Below, piece by piece: positions 5,064 through 30,555 of a stretch of DNA of 32,000 bases. Made by a program: the position numbers and the translations under genes. The notes under the pieces are model-generated. The model was not told the DNA's origin. It searched no databases and saw only the letters and a list, made by a program, of their open reading frames with translations. The stretch's first letter is position 1. Each line of letters begins with the position of its first letter. Source of the DNA: Candidatus Saccharimonadota bacterium (GTDB taxonomy: Bacteria > Patescibacteriota > Gracilibacteria > UBA4473); contig JACKFV010000001.1 in assembly GCA_020632335.1 (NCBI GenBank), forward strand, positions 210,001 to 242,000, read 5' to 3'.

Positions 5064-5120
5064 ACTCTCAGTCTAGCCCAGCCAACGCCAAAAAACCAGC
5101 AGAAAGCCGGCTATACAGAG

Positions 5121-5190
5121 AAAAAAACTCAAGATACCGATATCAAAACCAAAGGATAGTAGTACAGATATAAATATCTTGAGTTTTTTT
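5121..5190. repeat. ~70-nt AT-rich imperfect palindrome; a possible bidirectional terminator or recombination-type hairpin 3' of the islet ORF
   Basis: 5121-5136 AAAAAAACTCAAGATA pairs perfectly with 5175-5190 TATCTTGAGTTTTTTT. The helix continues at 5140-5144 / 5167-5171 after a 3x3 internal loop. It sits 11 nt beyond the stop of ORF 5202-5972. Confidence 0.6.
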
Positions 5191-5201
5191 GTGAACAATT
5201 A

Positions 5202-5972
5202 TTATTGTCTCAGCGGGAGTATTTGTGCTTTACCTCCAGGGTAGGTTACCTTGGTATAGTCCCCTGGGAGAGCGATAATCTCTATGGGCCCATTAGAAGT
5301 TTCAATTTCTATCCGGGCTCCTTTCTCAAGAGATTTTAAAGTATTTTTTACCTTATCGACTGTTGCCTGGTTTAGTTCAACAGTCGAAACCTCGTAGCCA
5401 TTTTCAAATGCATTAAACAAGACATCACTAAGTCTTGTATGATTTGAAGTAGCTGCTATGGTTAGAGTTCTTAAGGGATCTCTTAAACGCTGAAATATAT
5501 TAAACGAACTAAGAAAACACTCAGCGAGTAGGACTCCTTCTTCGTTGTATATACTTGCTGTGGGCTCTACCCCATAGGTCTGGGAATAATGCCATTTCCC
5601 ATTATTACTGCGGATCGCCACGCCAGAGATCGGAAATCTTACACCGCTGTATTTTATTTCTACCCTCTTGGGTAGTAACGGTAAATTTTCTCGTTTTAAC
5701 TGGACATTTACCCAGTATTGAACGATTACATCCAATCCTTGATGGGATATAATCGGCTGCATCCAACGAGAAAACTCCTCTTGAGTTATGCTCTCTCGAA
5801 CACCAGCGAACAAGGCTCTCTCATGGGAATCCCAGATGGGATGTCTCTCATTAGCACTATTAGTAATGCTACCAAAATTTTTTGCAGCGTCATATGTTCC
5901 CGAGCTTCTGCAAGAAATAAGGTTAATAATCATGCCACCACATAGGATGGCGAAAAAGAATACTCTTTTCAT
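5202..5972 (-). CDS. Orphan lipoprotein in an AT-rich islet
   Basis: 256 aa. The signal peptide plus lipobox 'MKRVFFFAILCGGMIINLISC' fits L-I-S-C. I recognise no family. Hand-counted G+C is 23/60 and 25/60 in lines 5281-5340 and 5341-5400, against 37/60 in line 4981-5040. ATG verified. Confidence 0.6.
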   Translation of the reverse strand: MKRVFFFAILCGGMIINLISCRSSGTYDAAKNFGSITNSANERHPIWDSHERALFAGVRESITQEEFSRWMQPIISHQGLDVIVQYWVNVQLKRENLPLLPKRVEIKYSGVRFPISGVAIRSNNGKWHYSQTYGVEPTASIYNEEGVLLAECFLSSFNIFQRLRDPLRTLTIAATSNHTRLSDVLFNAFENGYEVSTVELNQATVDKVKNTLKSLEKGARIEIETSNGPIEIIALPGDYTKVTYPGGKAQILPLRQ

Positions 5973-6055
5973 TGTTGATATGGTTTTTTAGTGAAAAAAT
6001 AAGAGTCCTGCTACCCCGCCGCAGCCGAGTAGTATGGACGCTTACTCTTCACTTT

Positions 6056-6070
6056 TCGGTATCTTGAGTT
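6056..6070. repeat. Third copy of the islet-bounding repeat (TCGGTATCTTGAGTT)
   Basis: Perfect 15-nt inverted repeat of 5126-5140 (AACTCAAGATACCGA). It also shares the 11-nt direct repeat TATCTTGAGTT with 5175-5185. Confidence 0.7.
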
Positions 6071-6242
6071 ATAAAGGAACCCCAGAAGCAGCGGTATCCC
6101 TGCGCTTATGGTATATATAGTCTCTACCACAAATACTGCAAATAGTCAATATTTTTGTAGAATTTCCCCAGCGAGGAGCGCCATTTCCTTGACAGAAAGG
6201 CCCCGGGTTCTACTCTACCACTTGTATAAACGCCCGCGATTC

Positions 6243-9019: not shown

Positions 9020-9388
9020 CTACTGCGCGGTGGTAGTTGTGGTGTCGTCCATATCGTTCCTGTCATCAGCGTCCATCTCGTCCATATCGTCGTCATCCAT
9101 ATCATCCATGTCATTCATCGCGCTTTTTACGCTGTCTTCCACCTTCTCAGCGGCGTCCTCTGCGGTAGTAGCGATGTCATCAGCGGTCTCTACAATGGCA
9201 TCTTTAGCCGTAGTGGCACCATCTACGATGACATTTCCCGCGTCCTCCAGCACGTCACCCGTCATGTCTACGACATCTGTAGCGCCCGTTTTTACCGCAT
9301 CGGCGGTACGGTCCATAGCTTTCTCAGCACCACAACCAGCCAGTGATACCACGACCACCAGGCCCAGGAAAAGACGAAATGCGTTCAT
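9020..9388 (-). CDS. Highly acidic lipoprotein with a Asp/Met-rich tail
   Basis: Internal ATG 9388 gives 'MNAFRLFLGLVVVVSLAGC' (lipobox LAGC). The mature part is Ala/Asp/Thr/Val-rich helical repeats ending in 'DMDDMDDDDMDEMDADDRNDMDDTTTTTAQ'. Confidence 0.6.
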   Translation of the reverse strand: MNAFRLFLGLVVVVSLAGCGAEKAMDRTADAVKTGATDVVDMTGDVLEDAGNVIVDGATTAKDAIVETADDIATTAEDAAEKVEDSVKSAMNDMDDMDDDDMDEMDADDRNDMDDTTTTTAQ

Positions 9389-9472
9389 GTAATGGGGGAT
9401 TACCTTGCTGTCACCGTATAACAAACCGCAGACGTGGCAAGTGAATCTACTGCGAAACTCTCAAAAGATACA

Positions 9473-21021: not shown

Positions 21022-21049
21022 TGCCGAGGAGGCCAAGAAATGCTATCAT
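21021..21049 (+). promoter_or_regulatory. Candidate promoter placing the TSS at the ABC-ATPase ATG
   Basis: TTGCCG (21021-21026)-N17-TATCAT (21044-21049), then 6 nt, then ATG 21056. On the other strand TATGAT (21050-21045) overlaps it, facing msrAB. Confidence 0.45.
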
Positions 21050-21055
21050 AGCCAC

Positions 21056-21751
21056 ATGGCGCTCATCGTGACCGAGAACCTGCACAAGAAGTATTTCTCC
21101 GGGCTGGAGACCGAACTCCACGTGCTTAGGGGCATCAACCTGACCATAGAGGCGGGGCAGAGCGTGGCGATCATGGGCCCCAGCGGGAGTGGGAAGAGCA
21201 CGCTCATGCACTTGCTGGGCTTCCTCGACACCGTGACGGAGGGCCGGTATTTCTTCGATGGAGAGGACGTGAGCCACTTCACCGAGGATGAGCTGGCCAG
21301 CATACGGAATACGCGCGTGGGGTTTGTCTTCCAGCAGTTTCATCTCCTCCCGCGCACCAGCGCCATCGAGAACGTGCAGCTACCGATGATCTACGCCGGG
21401 GTGAGCAGCGCTGAGCAAGTCCGTCGGGCCACCGAGGCACTGGAGGCCGTGGGGCTGGGAGACCGGCTGGACCACCTGCCCAACGAACTGAGCGGCGGGC
21501 AGCAGCAGCGGGTGAGCATAGCGCGAGCACTGGTGAATAACCCCAAGGTGCTGTTTGCCGATGAGCCGACGGGCAACCTAGACACACAGAGCAGCGAGGA
21601 AATCATGGAGATCTTCATGCAGCTGAACCGTGAGGGCAAGACGCTCATCATGGTGACGCACGAGCCGGACATAGCCCAGTACTGCGAGCGGGTCATCCAC
21701 CTGCGCGACGGGGTGATAGAGCGCGACCAGCGGCGAGCCCCCCGTGCCTAG
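21056..21751 (+). CDS. ABC transporter ATP-binding protein, MacB/LolD/FtsE-type
   Basis: 231 aa. Walker A 'GPSGSGKST', Q-loop 'FVFQQF', signature 'LSGGQQQRV' and 'LFADEPTGNLD' are present. ATG verified. Confidence 0.9.
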   Translation: MALIVTENLHKKYFSGLETELHVLRGINLTIEAGQSVAIMGPSGSGKSTLMHLLGFLDTVTEGRYFFDGEDVSHFTEDELASIRNTRVGFVFQQFHLLPRTSAIENVQLPMIYAGVSSAEQVRRATEALEAVGLGDRLDHLPNELSGGQQQRVSIARALVNNPKVLFADEPTGNLDTQSSEEIMEIFMQLNREGKTLIMVTHEPDIAQYCERVIHLRDGVIERDQRRAPRA

Positions 21752-22458
21752 CGCCCGAGATACAGCGAGCCGACTTTCGGGTCTGCGAGGAGAGAGGCGC
21801 CCGTGCCGGTGAGGGCATTACGCCCGAGCTCCAGCACATAGCCGCGGTCACTGATCTCCAGTGCTTTGGCGGCGTTCTGCTCGACCATGAGGATACTGGT
21901 GCCCTGGTCACGGATGCGCTGTATCTGCTGAAAGACCTCAGTGATGACCTTGGGCGCCAGGCCAATGCTCGGCTCGTCCAGCAGCAGCACCTCGGGGCTC
22001 AGCATCAGCCCCATACCCAGCGCCAGCATCTGCCGCTCTCCGCCGCTCAGCAGCCCCGCGGTGTGCCGTGCATAGGCCTGCAGCTGCGGGAAAAACGCCA
22101 TAATCTCCGCGTACTTCTGCTGTACTTCTGAGCGGTTGGTCATGGTGTAGGCGGCCATCTCGAGGTTCTCGGCCACAGTGAGGTCGGGGAAAATATTGAG
22201 CCCCTGTGTCACAAAGGCAATCCCAGAGCGGATGCGTGAGGCCACCGGGAGAGGGGTGAGGTCCCGCGAGCCGTGGTGCACGGTGCCGTGGCGGAGGCTA
22301 GTGAGGCCAAGAATGCTCTTCAGCAGGGTGCTCTTGCCCGCGCCGTTAGGGCCGATAATCGCAACAATCTCCCCCTCATGGAGGGTAATAGAGACCTCGT
22401 GGAGGATATCAGGGCCGTTGCCGTAGCCCGCCGTTACCGCTTCTACAGAGAGGATCAT
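21748..22458 (-). CDS. livF: Branched-chain amino acid ABC transporter ATPase LivF
   Basis: 236 aa. 'GPNGAGKSTLL', 'LSGGERQML' and 'LLLDEPSIGLAP' are present. It is the last gene of the livKHMGF order. ATG verified. Confidence 0.85.
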   Translation of the reverse strand: MILSVEAVTAGYGNGPDILHEVSITLHEGEIVAIIGPNGAGKSTLLKSILGLTSLRHGTVHHGSRDLTPLPVASRIRSGIAFVTQGLNIFPDLTVAENLEMAAYTMTNRSEVQQKYAEIMAFFPQLQAYARHTAGLLSGGERQMLALGMGLMLSPEVLLLDEPSIGLAPKVITEVFQQIQRIRDQGTSILMVEQNAAKALEISDRGYVLELGRNALTGTGASLLADPKVGSLYLGR

Positions 22459-22459
22459 G

Positions 22460-23197
22460 TTAGGCGCCTAAGTATGCTTCGAGGACTCGGGGGTCTGTCT
22501 GTACCTTCTCGGGGGTGTCTTGCATCAGGAATCTCCCATTCTCCATCACTACCACTTCGTCGGCGATGCGCATGAGGAAGGGCATGTGGTGCTCGATGAT
22601 GAGGAGGGTTTTGCCATCACGGTTCAGGCGGCGGATGAGGCGCTCCACCGTGCGCAGGAGGGTAGGGTTTACGCCCGCAGCGGGCTCGTCCAGGAGGATG
22701 AGATCAGCGTCCTGCAGCACACAGCGGAGGATCTCGACCAGTTTACTCTGGCCATAGCTCAGCTCTGCAGCGCTGTGGTCGAGGTAGTCTTGTAGCCCCA
22801 CCTCCTCTAGAAGGGCCGTGAGGCGCTCCAGGTGGAGGTCTTCATCTACCGGGGAGAAGCTGGACCACCAGCCGTCATAGGTGTGGCTGCAGGCCAGCAG
22901 GAGGTTCTCGCGCACGGTGAGGTTACGAAAAAGCCGTATCTGCTGGAAGGTCCGCGCTATGCCCTTGCGCACGATGCGGTGGGCTGGCACCCTCCGGAGG
23001 TCCTCGCCCTGGTAGAGGATCTGCCCACTCTCAGCCGGGACGAAGTGCGTGATGAGGTTAAACGCGGTAGTCTTGCCCGCGCCGTTGGGGCCGATGAGCC
23101 CCGTGATGGAGCCGGGCCGCACCGTGAAGCTCAGGCCGTCTACTGCCCGTACACCCCCGAAGGATTTGCTGAGGTTCTCGACAAGCAGGAGGGTCAT
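22460..23197 (-). CDS. livG: Branched-chain amino acid ABC transporter ATPase LivG
   Basis: 245 aa. 'LSKSFGGVRAVDGLSF', 'GPNGAGKTT', 'LSYGQSKLVE' and 'ILLDEPAAGVNP' are present. Its ATG overlaps the hicA stop (ATGA at 23194-23197). Confidence 0.85.
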   Translation of the reverse strand: MTLLLVENLSKSFGGVRAVDGLSFTVRPGSITGLIGPNGAGKTTAFNLITHFVPAESGQILYQGEDLRRVPAHRIVRKGIARTFQQIRLFRNLTVRENLLLACSHTYDGWWSSFSPVDEDLHLERLTALLEEVGLQDYLDHSAAELSYGQSKLVEILRCVLQDADLILLDEPAAGVNPTLLRTVERLIRRLNRDGKTLLIIEHHMPFLMRIADEVVVMENGRFLMQDTPEKVQTDPRVLEAYLGA

Positions 23198-23382
23198 GAT
23201 AGCGGGGGGACATCGAGTTGCTTACAGATGAGCCGTGCGGTCAGGTCTGCAATCTCTGTATGCCGTGGAACAACAGAGACGCTCCCATTGGTCCTATTTT
23301 GTACCTTCTCGTGCTTGGCGCCGCGCTGCAGGAGTATACAATTGTGCGCCTTGAGATGCATTACCAGTTGACGACGCTTCAT
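23194..23382 (-). CDS. hicA: HicA-family mRNA-interferase toxin
   Basis: 62 aa. 'MKRRQLVMHLKAHNCILLQRGAKHEKV...VSVVPRHTEIADLTARLICKQLDV' follows the HicA/YcfA pattern (K..ELxxxL, G-x-K/S-H, VPxHxxEI, ILKQ). ATG verified. Confidence 0.8.
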   Translation of the reverse strand: MKRRQLVMHLKAHNCILLQRGAKHEKVQNRTNGSVSVVPRHTEIADLTARLICKQLDVPPLS

Positions 23383-23600
23383 ACAGAAACCGTGCCAAAG
23401 AGTTCTTGTTCTATGGGACTATCGGTATCCCATTCAAACTGAGCACGGTTGCCACTCAGCATCATCTCGAGCGCCTCGGTGATGTTCTCGCGCACCTCTT
23501 CTAGTGTCTTGCCCTGGGTGATGACCCCTGGTACTTCTGGGATAGTAGCTACTATCCAACCATCTGAAGAGGTATAGGCCAGCGTAAGAGGAGTATGCAT
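23379..23600 (-). CDS. hicB: Short HicB/UPF0150-family antitoxin with no DNA-binding domain
   Basis: 73 aa from internal ATG 23600. 'SDGWIVATIPEVPGVITQGKTLEEVRENITEALEMML' matches the HicB N-terminal fold motif (PdLPGcxTqGeTleEa). Its stop overlaps the hicA ATG (ATGA at 23379-23382). Confidence 0.75.
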   Translation of the reverse strand: MHTPLTLAYTSSDGWIVATIPEVPGVITQGKTLEEVRENITEALEMMLSGNRAQFEWDTDSPIEQELFGTVSV

Positions 23601-23607
23601 GCGATGA

Positions 23608-24492
23608 TTATATGGAGGCCCTCCGGCGTGTAAAGAGCCACACCACTCCCCGAGGCGCAAAGAACATACAGCTGATGAGCAGCGCTGCGTAGAGCAGGTT
23701 GCGTGCGGGGCCGATGAGCGCGTCCGGGAAGCCCACAAAGCGCGGCACCTCCCCCAGCAGCAGCACGATAACCGTGCCCCCTATAGCGCCCGAGAAGCTC
23801 CCCTGGCCCCCTACAATGAGCATGAGCAGGAGGAAAATAATCTCTGGGAGTGCGAAAATGCTGGGGTCGAGGAAGAGCCGGTAGTGCGCGTAGAGCCCCC
23901 CTGCCACCGCTGCAAAGGCCGCACTGAGCGTCAGGCTCCACACCTGCGAGCGGAAGGTATCCTTCCCGAGGCCCTTGGCGGCGATCTCGTCATGCGCGAT
24001 GGCCCGCTGCAACCGGCCAAATGGTGAGCGAAACAGCCGCCACAGCACCCACTGGCAGGCGATGACTATCACCAAGTAGAGCGCCAGCACGGCCCAGGAG
24101 CTGCTGAACTCAACCCCTAAGATGCTCGGCTGGCTGATGCCCCGTATGCCCATGGGGCCGTTGGTGAGGGAGATCCAGTTAGTGGCCACCACGATGGCGA
24201 TCATGGCTGCCCCGAGGGTGGCGATAGCGAGGTAGTGGCCGCTCAGCCGGAGGGTCAGTAGCCCCAGCACCGCGGCAAATGCCCCCGCGATGAGCGCCCC
24301 GAGGAGGAGATTCAGGAGGAAGGGCGAGCCAAACTGCGTGCTGAGGATAGCCGCCGTGTACGCCCCCATGCCGTAGAAGATGATGTGCCCGAGGTTAAAG
24401 AGCCCGGTGAGACCAAAGCTGAGGTTATAGCTCTGGGTCAGCAGAGACCAGATCGTCATGAGAATCGCCAGCGACAGGAGGTATTCGAGCAT
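23608..24492 (-). CDS. livM: Branched-chain amino acid ABC transporter permease LivM
   Basis: 'NLSFGLTGLFNLGHIIFYGMGAYTAA' is the LivM/LivH-family core. Start set at ATG 24492 ('MLEYLLSL'), because the longer track ORF overlaps the preceding AT-rich gene. Confidence 0.8.
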   Translation of the reverse strand: MLEYLLSLAILMTIWSLLTQSYNLSFGLTGLFNLGHIIFYGMGAYTAAILSTQFGSPFLLNLLLGALIAGAFAAVLGLLTLRLSGHYLAIATLGAAMIAIVVATNWISLTNGPMGIRGISQPSILGVEFSSSWAVLALYLVIVIACQWVLWRLFRSPFGRLQRAIAHDEIAAKGLGKDTFRSQVWSLTLSAAFAAVAGGLYAHYRLFLDPSIFALPEIIFLLLMLIVGGQGSFSGAIGGTVIVLLLGEVPRFVGFPDALIGPARNLLYAALLISCMFFAPRGVVWLFTRRRASI

Positions 24493-24497
24493 GAGGT

Positions 24498-24878
24498 CTA
24501 AATACGCCCAATAAAAAAGCCCAAAATAGCCCCGATAATACCAATGAGTGTGGGAATAAGTTTGTCTCCACGCACAAAGTTGACCCACTGTACTTTTCGA
24601 AAATATTCAAATCCGTGCAATTTTTCTTGTTGTTGCTGCTTAGCTTGTTCTTCTAATTTTGATAAATGTTTATAACCGGCATCCGTTATCATTAATATGC
24701 CGCTAGCATCGGATAGGAAGGGATGAAACGAAACATACCCATTCTTCTTCATTTTAGCAGTCTCTGTATACAAAGTGGCATTACTGGCCTCAATATATTC
24801 AAAAATATCAACTTTTTGGTGTTCTTTTCTGTCTTTGAGAGCTTGGAGAACCTGGTATTCGATGGTAGAAGAGGTCAT
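24498..24878 (-). CDS. AT-rich orphan gene: winged-helix-like N-domain, Gln/Glu-rich linker and C-terminal TM anchor
   Basis: 126 aa. 'YQVLQALKD...IFEYI...KKNGYVSF...GILMITDAGYKHL', then 'EEQAKQQQQEK', then TM 'IPTLIGIIGAILGFFIG'. It starts 9 nt after the livH stop and ends 5 nt before the livM ATG. G+C is 18/60 and 24/60 in lines 24601-24660 and 24661-24720. Confidence 0.55.
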   Translation of the reverse strand: MTSSTIEYQVLQALKDRKEHQKVDIFEYIEASNATLYTETAKMKKNGYVSFHPFLSDASGILMITDAGYKHLSKLEEQAKQQQQEKLHGFEYFRKVQWVNFVRGDKLIPTLIGIIGAILGFFIGRI

Positions 24879-24887
24879 GGGAATCTC

Positions 24888-25775
24888 TTAGTGTCTAATA
24901 GCAGTAAAGCGGGTACCAAAGAGCCCCGCGGGCTTGACCAGCAGCATGAGAATCAGTACCACAAAGGGAATAGCCGCGGTGAAACCACTAGGGATAACCC
25001 CATACCCCACCAGCAGGCTCTGCAAAATGCCGATGATATAAGCCCCCACAATGGCCCCCGGCACCGACCCCACCGCCCCGAGTATCAGCGCCGCAAAGGC
25101 CATAATGCCGATCTGCACGCCCATGGTGGGCTCCAGGTTCTGCTCATAGCCGAGGAAGACCCCCGCCACCGCGGCCAGTACCGTCCCGATGCCGAAGATC
25201 CACCGCATGGCGCTGTCCGCACTCAGCCCAAACATACTCGCCAGGCTGCGGTTACTACTGACGGCCCGCAGCATCTTCCCCGGCCGTGTGTAGGTGAGGA
25301 AGCTCTGCAGCCCCAGCATCAGCAGTAGCGAGGTCACCAGCGCGATAATCTGCACCGGGGTGGCCAGCAAATGCCCCGACAGCAGCGCCATGTTGGGCGC
25401 CGCGCCATCGCTAATGGTGAGGATACCAGCCCCAAAGCCGATGAGAATAAGCGCCTGGATGCCGATGCTCAGCCCAATAGAAACCACCAGCGGGATGAGC
25501 GCATCGCGGTCGCGCAGGGGGCGGAAGAAGACGCGCTCTATGAGGAGGCCCACCAGCAGCGTCACCCCGAGCGTCAGCAGCAGCGCGGGCACTACCGGCC
25601 AGCCCCAGTACTTGTGAGAGACCATAAAGCTATAGGCGCCCACCGCCACCAGCTCTCCGTGAGCGAACTGGAGGAAGCCCCCCACGCCGTAGATGAGAGT
25701 GAGCCCCAGCGCCACAAGGGCGATGAGGCTCCCGGTCACGATGCCATTCCAGAGCAGCTGGAGGAGAAGATCCAT
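24888..25775 (-). CDS. livH: Branched-chain amino acid ABC transporter permease LivH
   Basis: 295 aa. 'GVGGFLQFAHGELVAVGAY' is the family core. Its ATG overlaps the livK stop by 1 nt (TAATG). Confidence 0.85.
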   Translation of the reverse strand: MDLLLQLLWNGIVTGSLIALVALGLTLIYGVGGFLQFAHGELVAVGAYSFMVSHKYWGWPVVPALLLTLGVTLLVGLLIERVFFRPLRDRDALIPLVVSIGLSIGIQALILIGFGAGILTISDGAAPNMALLSGHLLATPVQIIALVTSLLLMLGLQSFLTYTRPGKMLRAVSSNRSLASMFGLSADSAMRWIFGIGTVLAAVAGVFLGYEQNLEPTMGVQIGIMAFAALILGAVGSVPGAIVGAYIIGILQSLLVGYGVIPSGFTAAIPFVVLILMLLVKPAGLFGTRFTAIRH

Positions 25776-26950: not shown

Positions 26951-27019
26951 CAGAGGGGGAGGGTAAGGAATACCCCCACCCTACTAGGCTGAGCGGGGGT
27001 GTCAATGGGCCCTCTCCGG

Positions 27020-30090: not shown

Positions 30091-30101
30091 AAAGAGAGAC
30101 C

Positions 30102-30134
30102 AAAAAACCTGTAATTTCTCTCAAAATTACAGGT
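30102..30134 (-). terminator. Minus-strand rho-independent terminator with no annotated gene upstream of it
   Basis: Minus strand reads ACCTGTAATTT-TGAGAG-AAATTACAGGT followed by TTTTT. The stem is a perfect 11 bp (30107-30117 / 30124-30134). On the plus strand no T-run follows it. Confidence 0.6.
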
Positions 30135-30179
30135 ATTAACCTTAGTCAAGAAAATGATCACTTTGATACTCTATGGTAT

Positions 30180-30311
30180 CTAGTGACGTTCACCATTTTC
30201 ATTTACTTTTGCATCTGTTCGATGCAGATCGTTGCCGGCGGTATCAGGATAGATACAATTTTCTATTCTTGGACCGGCTGGTAAATAGTCTGGATTTTGA
30301 AAATTTTTCAT
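30180..30311 (-). CDS. Possible 43-aa small ORF in an AT-rich gap (too short for the ORF track)
   Basis: I translated it by hand as MKNFQNPDYLPAGPRIENCIYPDTAGNDLHRTDAKVNENGERH*. ATG at 30311-30309, TAG at 30182-30180, 45 nt upstream of the minus-strand terminator. There is no clear RBS, and it could be a chance ORF. Confidence 0.2.
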   Translation of the reverse strand: MKNFQNPDYLPAGPRIENCIYPDTAGNDLHRTDAKVNENGERH

Positions 30312-30398
30312 GATTTAGAATTTAATGTGTTTAAAAAAATTAATGTTTGGTGTCGACTCCAAATGGTTCTTTCCTTAACTGTATGTAAAAGATGTCAG

Positions 30399-30454
30399 CT
30401 AAGGATTCTCATAGAAAGGAAATAGAGAAACTGCCTCCCTGTGGGAATCCTTAG
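30399..30454. other. 10-bp inverted repeat (possible RNA stem-loop) in the AT-rich gap
   Basis: CTAAGGATTC (30399-30408) and GAATCCTTAG (30445-30454) enclose 36 nt. Confidence 0.3.
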
Positions 30455-30521
30455 AACTGAACACTTCTGACTCTGAAGATTCTGGGGCTGGTGTCAAGAA
30501 AAAAAGCAGAAAAACTCCCCC

Positions 30522-30549
30522 TTGCCAATGCGCCGCAGCCAAGCATACT
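30522..30549 (+). promoter_or_regulatory. Candidate promoter placing the TSS at the ATG of the DUF2797-like gene
   Basis: TTGCCA (30522-30527)-N16-CATACT (30544-30549), then 6 nt, then ATG 30556. Confidence 0.35.
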
Positions 30550-30555
30550 GCGTGC

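Follow-up and report, generated by a model that had tools for sequence, protein, structure and literature searches.

Small regulators of the PadR subfamily 2 (LmrR of Lactococcus lactis) and of the MarR type consist of a winged helix at the N-terminus and a single long helix behind it at the C-terminus, in about 110 amino acids, and they are soluble proteins. In another, established class, the membrane-integrated one-component regulators of the ToxR/CadC type, a winged helix-turn-helix (wHTH) head is tethered to the membrane (PMC5430869, PMC10629549). An effector domain of the OmpR/PhoB type and a periplasmic sensor domain are part of these regulators. A literature search for tail-anchored or PadR-type membrane wHTH proteins yielded nothing relevant apart from the ToxR/CadC class. 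Short AT-rich ORFan genes of bacteria, reportedly according to work of Daubin and Ochman in 2004, are generally attributed to phage or mobile-element origin. Here, we describe a gene, termed X, that is located between the permease genes livH and livM of an amino-acid ABC transporter (liv) operon in a 32,000-nt stretch of DNA (hereafter the window; contig JACKFV010000001.1, positions 210,001 to 242,000) from a 62%-GC Candidatus Peribacteria genome. The gene is likely a horizontally acquired orphan that arrived in the livH-livM junction, and not a part of the transporter.

In its predicted layout, X is similar to the PadR subfamily 2 and small MarR-type regulators, but it differs from these in an added C-terminal transmembrane helix, in Pfam scores below the gathering thresholds, in a slightly acidic domain without the typical basic wing residues, and in that no cognate operator or regulated neighbour is evident. 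With the ToxR/CadC class, X shares a cytoplasmic N-terminal winged-helix head (as predicted) and a single transmembrane helix; however, it contains neither an OmpR/PhoB-type effector nor a periplasmic sensor domain (no Pfam match; two residues past the helix), it has no homologues, and it is absent from related liv operons. As for AT-rich ORFans, X is short, far more AT-rich than its host, without homologues and lineage-specific, but in contrast to typical ORFans it is placed seamlessly inside a core transporter operon between coupled genes, and not in an island or beside a tRNA or integrase gene. X reached the sequence threshold of none of the families tested, and may be placed, weakly, at the level of fold and architecture only.

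An orphan gene between livH and livM

Gene X is an open reading frame (ORF) of 126 codons with an ATG start, in the same reading frame as livH. The gene order livK-livH-X-livM-hicB-hicA-livG-livF was established with Pfam profiles (livK, Peripla_BP_6; livH and livM, BPD_transp_2; hicB, UPF0150/HicB-like; livG, ABC_tran and BCA_ABC_TP_C), and the genes of this operon overlap or are 1-9 nt apart. On the minus strand, the upstream junction reads ...ATT AGA CAC TAA gagattccc ATG ACC TCT... (livH stop to X start), and the downstream junction ...GGG CGT ATT TAG acctc ATG CTC GAA TAC... (X stop to livM start). The real livM start is the ATG at 24492, for which the equivalent ATG in all relatives opens M-[L/I]-E-Y; a longer livM ORF from a GTG at 24588 was discarded as an ORF-calling artefact, as the LivM starts of the relatives point to ATG 24492. 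The ORF coordinates, both spacers and the gene order, with X and hicBA inside the liv operon, thereby agree with an earlier reading of this DNA that was made from the letters and their ORFs (hereafter the sequence-only reading). The X frame is the only stop-free one of the six, with 3-11 stops in each of the other five, and only 0.14% of the shuffled versions of the 395-nt segment had 126 or more consecutive codons free of stops in any frame (p=0.0014); the ORF is therefore more than a chance occurrence.

An assembly artefact was rejected, as two Logan short-read contigs are identical across X. These contigs (SRR12358676 and SRR12358675), which were located by exact-protein look-up of LivH and LivM of the window, match the window at 99.9-100% across the whole insert, with two differences in all, both inside livM. 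The DNA of X is contained in L006 and L007, of which the former has no called gene between livH and livM and the latter only a call of X that is truncated at the 5' end (121 amino acids); the exact look-up of the X protein in assemblies returned no record. X is a real, intact ORF that is reproduced by separate short-read assemblies.

The GC content of X is 0.378 (0.47, 0.30 and 0.36 for codon positions 1, 2 and 3), with a minimum over X of 0.36 in 300-nt windows. The flanking genes livH (0.623; GC at third codon positions, GC3, 0.80) and livM (0.626; GC3 0.83) are in the range of livH, livM, livG and livF together (62-63% GC; GC3 0.79-0.83). A foreign composition had been proposed by the sequence-only reading from hand counts, and the contrast (37.8% vs 62-63% GC) is larger than these counts implied. 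The codon pattern of X in frame (GC1>GC3>GC2, with 29% G at codon position 1) is typical of coding sequence from a low-GC genome.

In a word-indexed search against 5.8 billion clusters, X matched only itself (hypothetical protein H6771_01180, Candidatus Peribacteria bacterium, on a 630,865-bp contig). An exhaustive HMMER search of 1.84 billion representatives returned X and three marginal multi-stretch matches, which were rejected as spurious (phage-tail-repeat, RTX, and PAS-containing repeat proteins). No relative of X was found in IMG/VR, among GenBank phages or among PLSDB plasmids, and tblastn against the window yielded the self-match only. X is an orphan without detectable homologue among the protein, viral, phage and plasmid collections searched. 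The homologue search proposed with the sequence-only reading thus retrieved X alone, so that there is no recurrence with hicAB or within transporter operons.

The livH-livM junction was compared with that of ten related liv loci, nine of them distinct (L009 and L010 share one operon), whose LivH and LivM proteins are 58-71% identical to those of the window; no closer relative was found in the databases (best LivM match, 71% identical). X is absent from all ten loci, hence without conserved presence at the orthologous position as a Liv component (hydrophobic amino-acid transporter type), and it matched none of the LivK/H/M/G/F families in Pfam or NCBIfam. In the sequence-only reading, homologues of host-like composition at the same liv position across the clade were to indicate a lineage-specific Liv subunit; no such homologue was found in the ten loci, and several of the relatives showed tight empty sites (e.g. 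4 and 11 nt). Other relatives carry unrelated inserts at this site (Table 1), and the junction is, as judged from these loci, a recurrent insertion point across the clade. Since X is absent from the relatives and unrelated inserts occur at the same junction, X is not a Liv subunit; since unrelated things land between the permease genes, its position carries little functional weight. In L005 (249-1164, a JGI contig), the livM homologue is split into overlapping ORFs in different frames (249-935 and 658-1164), which represents a frameshift either from sequencing error or in a pseudogene.

The relatives' loci (L001-L005, L008-L011; Peribacteria/Gracilibacteria) have 39-47% GC, with a GC3 of 0.24-0.62 for their liv genes, and the host of the window (about 62% GC; GC3 about 0.80) is a high-GC outlier in a low-GC clade. 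This gap indicates a strong lineage-specific rise in GC content, by which recent acquisitions would stand out. The composition of X fits a donor that was an ordinary member of the clade, or its mobile elements, because of the GC and GC3 ranges of the relatives. The insertion had been described as very recent in the sequence-only reading; its age is not datable, with the best LivM relative only 71% identical.

Predicted domains and fold of the X protein

Three parts are predicted for the X protein, i.e. an N-terminal winged helix, a long Gln/Glu-rich helix and a C-terminal transmembrane helix (Table 1). The single C-terminal transmembrane helix, which the sequence-only reading had also called, is confirmed by hydropathy (Kyte-Doolittle mean of 2.49 for residues 107-123). 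Glycines 113, 116, 120 and 124 form a zipper-like face of this helix, and it is followed by two residues only (Arg-Ile); X would therefore be tail-anchored, with a cytoplasmic head.

For the head, the best profile match was HTH_34 (PF13601; E=7.8e-4, 20 bits, below the gathering threshold of 27; residues 7-68 on profile positions 2-65 of 80), followed among Pfam families by PadR (PF03551; E=0.025, 15 bits, gathering threshold 27; residues 27-51 only) and Mrr_N (E=0.054); both the HTH_34 and the PadR match span the recognition helix and the following NGYV strand. Further weak matches were to the wHTH portion of CasR in PADLOC (E=0.0032, 15 bits), to the wHTH parts of KdgR, MntR and Csa3 in NCBIfam (E of about 0.1-0.2), and to the MarR-family structure 3zpl in the PDB (E=0.25), whereas Pfam MarR gave no match at E<=1. 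All of these weak wHTH matches are in one register (residues about 4-75).

A single-sequence AlphaFold2 model of X was of low confidence (predicted local distance difference test, pLDDT, 54), with the topology H-(E)-H-E-E-long H, i.e. two helices (residues 4-15 and 34-45), a β-hairpin (49-64), the long helix (66-102) and a helix at the C-terminal end (108-125). Omission of the transmembrane helix did not improve the model, but made it worse (pLDDT 46). When the model was searched against the PDB with Foldseek, each of the top 50 matches was a DNA-binding protein with a wHTH, in most cases from the PadR (LmrR) or MarR family, at probabilities up to 0.98, E-values of 0.02-0.17 and TM-scores of 0.35-0.48; LmrR was the top match (probability 0.97, E=0.02, TM-score about 0.4), obtained from this low-confidence model. 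The wHTH domain assigned in the sequence-only reading is consistent with all of the weak profile and structure matches. Since no Pfam gathering score was reached and both models are poor, however, the N-terminal winged helix is a low-confidence prediction; X is probably a membrane-anchored winged-helix protein.

Insertion, expression and alternative explanations

No promoter-like site was found on the minus strand between livK and hicB, the interior of X included, by which an internal promoter for livM carried by the AT-rich X was also rejected. From livK to hicB there was one terminator-like hit, a weak stem of 5 bp in livK that does not exceed what chance would give. Because there is no promoter-like and only a chance-level terminator-like site nearby, we infer that X is transcribed with the liv operon from the liv promoter; given also the 9-nt and 5-nt spacers, co-transcription, as proposed by the sequence-only reading, is the one plausible interpretation. 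Most genes in the window, X and livM included, lack an upstream Shine-Dalgarno (SD) motif. About 25 upstream regions were checked (e.g. 26951-26975, 24879-24903 and 21031-21055) and nearly all were without SD-like motifs, and several starts in the window are located a few nt past TATAAT-like or TATCAT-like hexamers. The window genes' upstream regions suggest leaderless or SD-independent initiation, with heavy reliance on translational coupling, and translation of X by reinitiation would be expected because of the tight gene spacing and the missing SD motifs.

For the explanation that we consider likely, X would have been acquired from a low-GC source and have landed in the livH-livM junction, where it would be transcribed from the liv promoter and translated through termination-reinitiation coupling, with its start 9 nt past the livH stop and livM 5 nt past its own stop. 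The 'perfect packing' of X would represent a survivorship filter, i.e. an insert may be tolerated if it is an abutting, translated ORF that delivers ribosomes to livM; under such a filter, perfect packing would not imply a role of X in transport. We predict a tail-anchored protein with its N-terminus inside, comprising a cytoplasmic PadR/MarR-like winged helix, the Gln/Glu-rich helix and the glycine-zipper transmembrane helix, and the long helix together with the zipper would favour dimers or oligomers. Speculatively, its activity would most likely be to bind DNA or protein while tethered to the membrane, as a factor derived from the mobile element of a low-GC relative, for example a small repressor or tether. 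At present, X might be an exclusion factor, a co-opted regulator, or the repressor or tether of an element that has since gone.

Several observations weigh against this explanation. Every wHTH match is below its family threshold, the AlphaFold2 models are poor (pLDDT 54 and 46), and the Foldseek E-values (0.02-0.17) and TM-scores (0.35-0.48) are only modest. The head domain is slightly acidic (pI 6.0), and the basic wing residues of MarR are replaced by Ala or Ser in X, as read against the 3zpl alignment; DNA binding is therefore doubtful, and less certain than the fold. The relatives tolerate untranslated spacers of 41-141 nt at livH-livM, so strict coupling is not clade-wide. Finally, the insertion route is not marked by any donor, mobility gene, terminal inverted repeat or significant target duplication.

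The hexamer GAGGTC is present at both junctions (24493-24498 and 24871-24876), as the sequence-only reading had noted, but it does not indicate a precise insertion. A target-site duplication was rejected, as the hexamer is common (34 occurrences in the window) and the junction alignments are not significant. A 9-mer, TCGAATACC, is common to 24854-24862 (X codons I-E-Y) and 24480-24488 (livM codons L-E-Y), in frame, and the collinear exact matches between the junction regions (GACCTC, TCGAATACC, CGGGGCT.TTTGG and CTC.TTGGTA) cover more bases in exact 6-mers than 99.8% of equally spaced control pairs (p~0.002, post hoc), an excess that the repeated ATT-GGN codons encoding the transmembrane helix inflate in part. 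In ordinary local alignments, the two junctions showed no significant similarity (p of about 0.05 and 0.46, empirical nulls), and a duplication of the junction is a possible route of insertion. The boundaries of X are without terminal inverted repeats; a transposable element, a miniature inverted-repeat transposable element and an insertion-sequence remnant were rejected for this reason and for lack of a significant target duplication. An RNA element was rejected as well, as the insert had no Rfam match even at E<=1. The foreign tract could reach into the 3' end of livH, where G or C is the final base in only 3 of the 8 closing codons; as the closing codons of livK, ahead of its own coupled neighbour, have the same bias (2 of 8), this is not diagnostic.

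That X is a functionless passenger or 'spacer' ORF, either too recent to have decayed or kept open for ribosome delivery and mRNA protection, is unlikely. The tight packing and the SD-less genes are in line with such a role, as is the acidic wHTH domain without typical basic wing residues, and with no homologue anywhere searched nothing speaks for selection acting on the protein. On the other hand, the length of the ORF is improbable by chance, more than eight independent profiles match in the wHTH register, the fold matches are exclusively to wHTH proteins and the terminal transmembrane helix is clean. By these non-random features X derives at least from a real gene. The relatives also function with their untranslated spacers at the same junction.

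We attach little probability to the proposal that X is functional as a co-opted, minimal tail-anchored winged-helix protein, i.e. a regulator in contact with LivH/LivM or a DNA-tethering or exclusion factor. If it were functional, X would combine a winged helix and a membrane tether in a very small protein, would lack a sensor domain and known relatives, and would be produced in lock-step with an amino-acid permease; membrane-tethered DNA binding or transporter-coupled regulation could then be studied in a simple model. A related reading, in which X, hicBA and the inserts of the relatives reflect that SD-less, coupled operons of the Candidate Phyla Radiation (CPR) accept only seamless ORFs at permissive junctions, is rather improbable as well.

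The more specific case of a co-opted Liv accessory, a tail-anchored regulator that contacts LivH/LivM through its transmembrane helix and reports transport status in the manner of CadC-LysP or MalT-MalK, is very unlikely. CadC is also controlled by the amino-acid permease LysP, which the location of X between two amino-acid permease genes would parallel. From its position exactly between the permease genes, X would be produced in stoichiometric coupling with the permeases, its membrane anchor with a glycine-zipper packing motif and its wHTH-like head would suit such contacts, and wHTH regulators integrated in the membrane are already established as a class (PMC5430869, PMC10629549). However, X is missing from all ten related liv loci, is an orphan of foreign composition, and has neither a periplasmic sensor nor an OmpR-type domain, and the unrelated inserts at the same junction in relatives leave its position with little functional meaning.

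It is highly improbable that X acts in defence or exclusion, or as a third partner in the hicBA toxin-antitoxin module, both of which the sequence-only reading had raised. Exclusion is a frequent role of small membrane proteins that stem from mobile elements, hicBA is located 0.9 kb downstream in the same operon, and X has weak PADLOC matches to the wHTH portions of CasR, CARF-TM and PRTase proteins. These matches are to generic wHTH parts (E of 0.003 or weaker), and do not bear out a defence role. The hicBA genes form a complete pair with its own strong promoter-like site; hicB starts 7 nt past the end of livM, the TGA of hicA and the ATG of livG overlap, and with the promoter ending 6 nt before the hicB ATG, the transcript may be nearly leaderless. 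None of the ten related liv loci contains the pair, as far as their livM-livG junction was readable (L005 and L009-L011 among them), which suggests a second lineage-specific insertion. It would have been acquired separately from X, because of its own promoter-like site and its differing, intermediate GC content (51-53% vs 38% for X, with livM located between the two). The partnership of X and hicBA was thus not borne out; as X is without any homologues, a co-occurrence with hicAB is not possible and none was found.

A local origin of X, by which an AT-rich livH-livM spacer was expanded by duplicated gene ends and the ORF arose de novo, is scarcely credible: the lack of homologues anywhere searched, the AT-rich 41-141-nt spacers of relatives at this site and the excess of collinear junction matches are in its favour, but the local alignments of the junctions are not significant, the k-mer excess is partly from repetitive codons, the wHTH-like matches favour descent from a real gene, and a 62%-GC genome with a GC3 of 0.80 should not make or keep a 38%-GC sequence unless it had recently arrived.

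With a horizontally acquired orphan as the likely explanation, the locus illustrates the uptake of foreign genes into an essential-looking operon of a reduced, tightly packed CPR genome, by which the operon was left unbroken: X and hicBA, two modules unrelated to each other, sit seamlessly between coupled genes, and livH-livM is hit repeatedly in relatives. The host lineage has moved to 62% GC and its acquisitions, in the picture given here, still look about 40% GC. AT-rich orphans are a well-known by-product of gene transfer, and current understanding is not overturned; X is a curiosity, a tidy capture of a foreign gene in a CPR core operon, with no evidence for a new mechanism, a transporter role or a link to hicBA.

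Features of the window

The coordinates of X and of its neighbours, and the livH-livM junctions of the relatives, are summarized in Table 1.

Table 1. Features of the X locus in the window, and livH-livM junctions in related liv loci
Feature	Position	Strand	Basis or description
Gene X, NCBI hypothetical protein H6771_01180, 126-aa orphan ORF, 37.8% GC	24498..24878	-	ORF, composition, homology searches
Putative PadR/MarR-like winged helix-turn-helix, residues 4-68	24675..24869	-	Weak matches, below family thresholds
Long Gln/Glu-rich helix (EEQAKQQQQEK...), residues 69-102, likely dimerisation/linker	24573..24674	-	Helix 66-102 in both models
Single C-terminal transmembrane helix, glycine-zipper spacing, residues 107-124	24507..24560	-	Hydropathy and sequence
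9-nt spacer, livH TAA to X ATG	24879..24887	-	Direct sequence
5-nt spacer, X TAG to livM ATG	24493..24497	-	Direct sequence
livK-type substrate-binding lipoprotein, PF13458	25775..26950	-	Pfam
livH-type permease, PF02653	24888..25775	-	Pfam
livM-type permease, PF02653, true start ATG 24492	23608..24492	-	Pfam and relatives' starts
Sigma-70-like promoter TTTACA-16-TATAAT, 11/12, ending 6 nt before hicB ATG	23607..23634	-	Promoter scan
hicB (23379-23600) and hicA (23194-23382), between livM and livG, 51-53% GC	23194..23600	-	Pfam, composition
livG (22460-23197) and livF (21748-22458) ATPase genes	21748..23197	-	Pfam
livH-livM in L005			4 nt (TAG-tctc-ATG); livM overlaps livG (ATGA)
livH-livM in L009/L010			11 nt; livM-livG overlap
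livH-livM in L008			41 nt
livH-livM in L003			about 55 nt
livH-livM in L001 and L002	L001 6886-7013; L002 6886-7026		128-141 nt of palindromic repeats, similar to repetitive extragenic palindromic (REP) elements, ending ...CGCAATGAC
livH-livM in L004 and L011	L004 6879-7991; L011 2357-3493		Complete second substrate-binding-protein gene

A second AT-rich island (window 5064-6240, about 40% GC) is located between an FtsX-like permease gene and rpsT. It contains an ORF on the minus strand (5202-5972; 256 amino acids, 41% GC, GC3 0.37) with a lipoprotein-type signal (...LISC), which is also an orphan, as its single database match is itself, on a Logan contig; such acquisitions therefore recur in this genome. 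A 465-nt AT-rich spacer (30091-30555, about 40% GC) separates a dus-like gene from the next gene; it contains no ORF of at least 60 amino acids and has Rfam matches at chance level only, and could be a decayed insertion, or an RNA or regulatory region. Furthermore, a lower-GC stretch (48-53%) contains a lipoprotein-like ORF of 134 amino acids (9020-9424, minus strand), the tail of which is extremely acidic and Asp/Met-rich (...DDMDDMDDDDMDEMDADDRNDMDD...).

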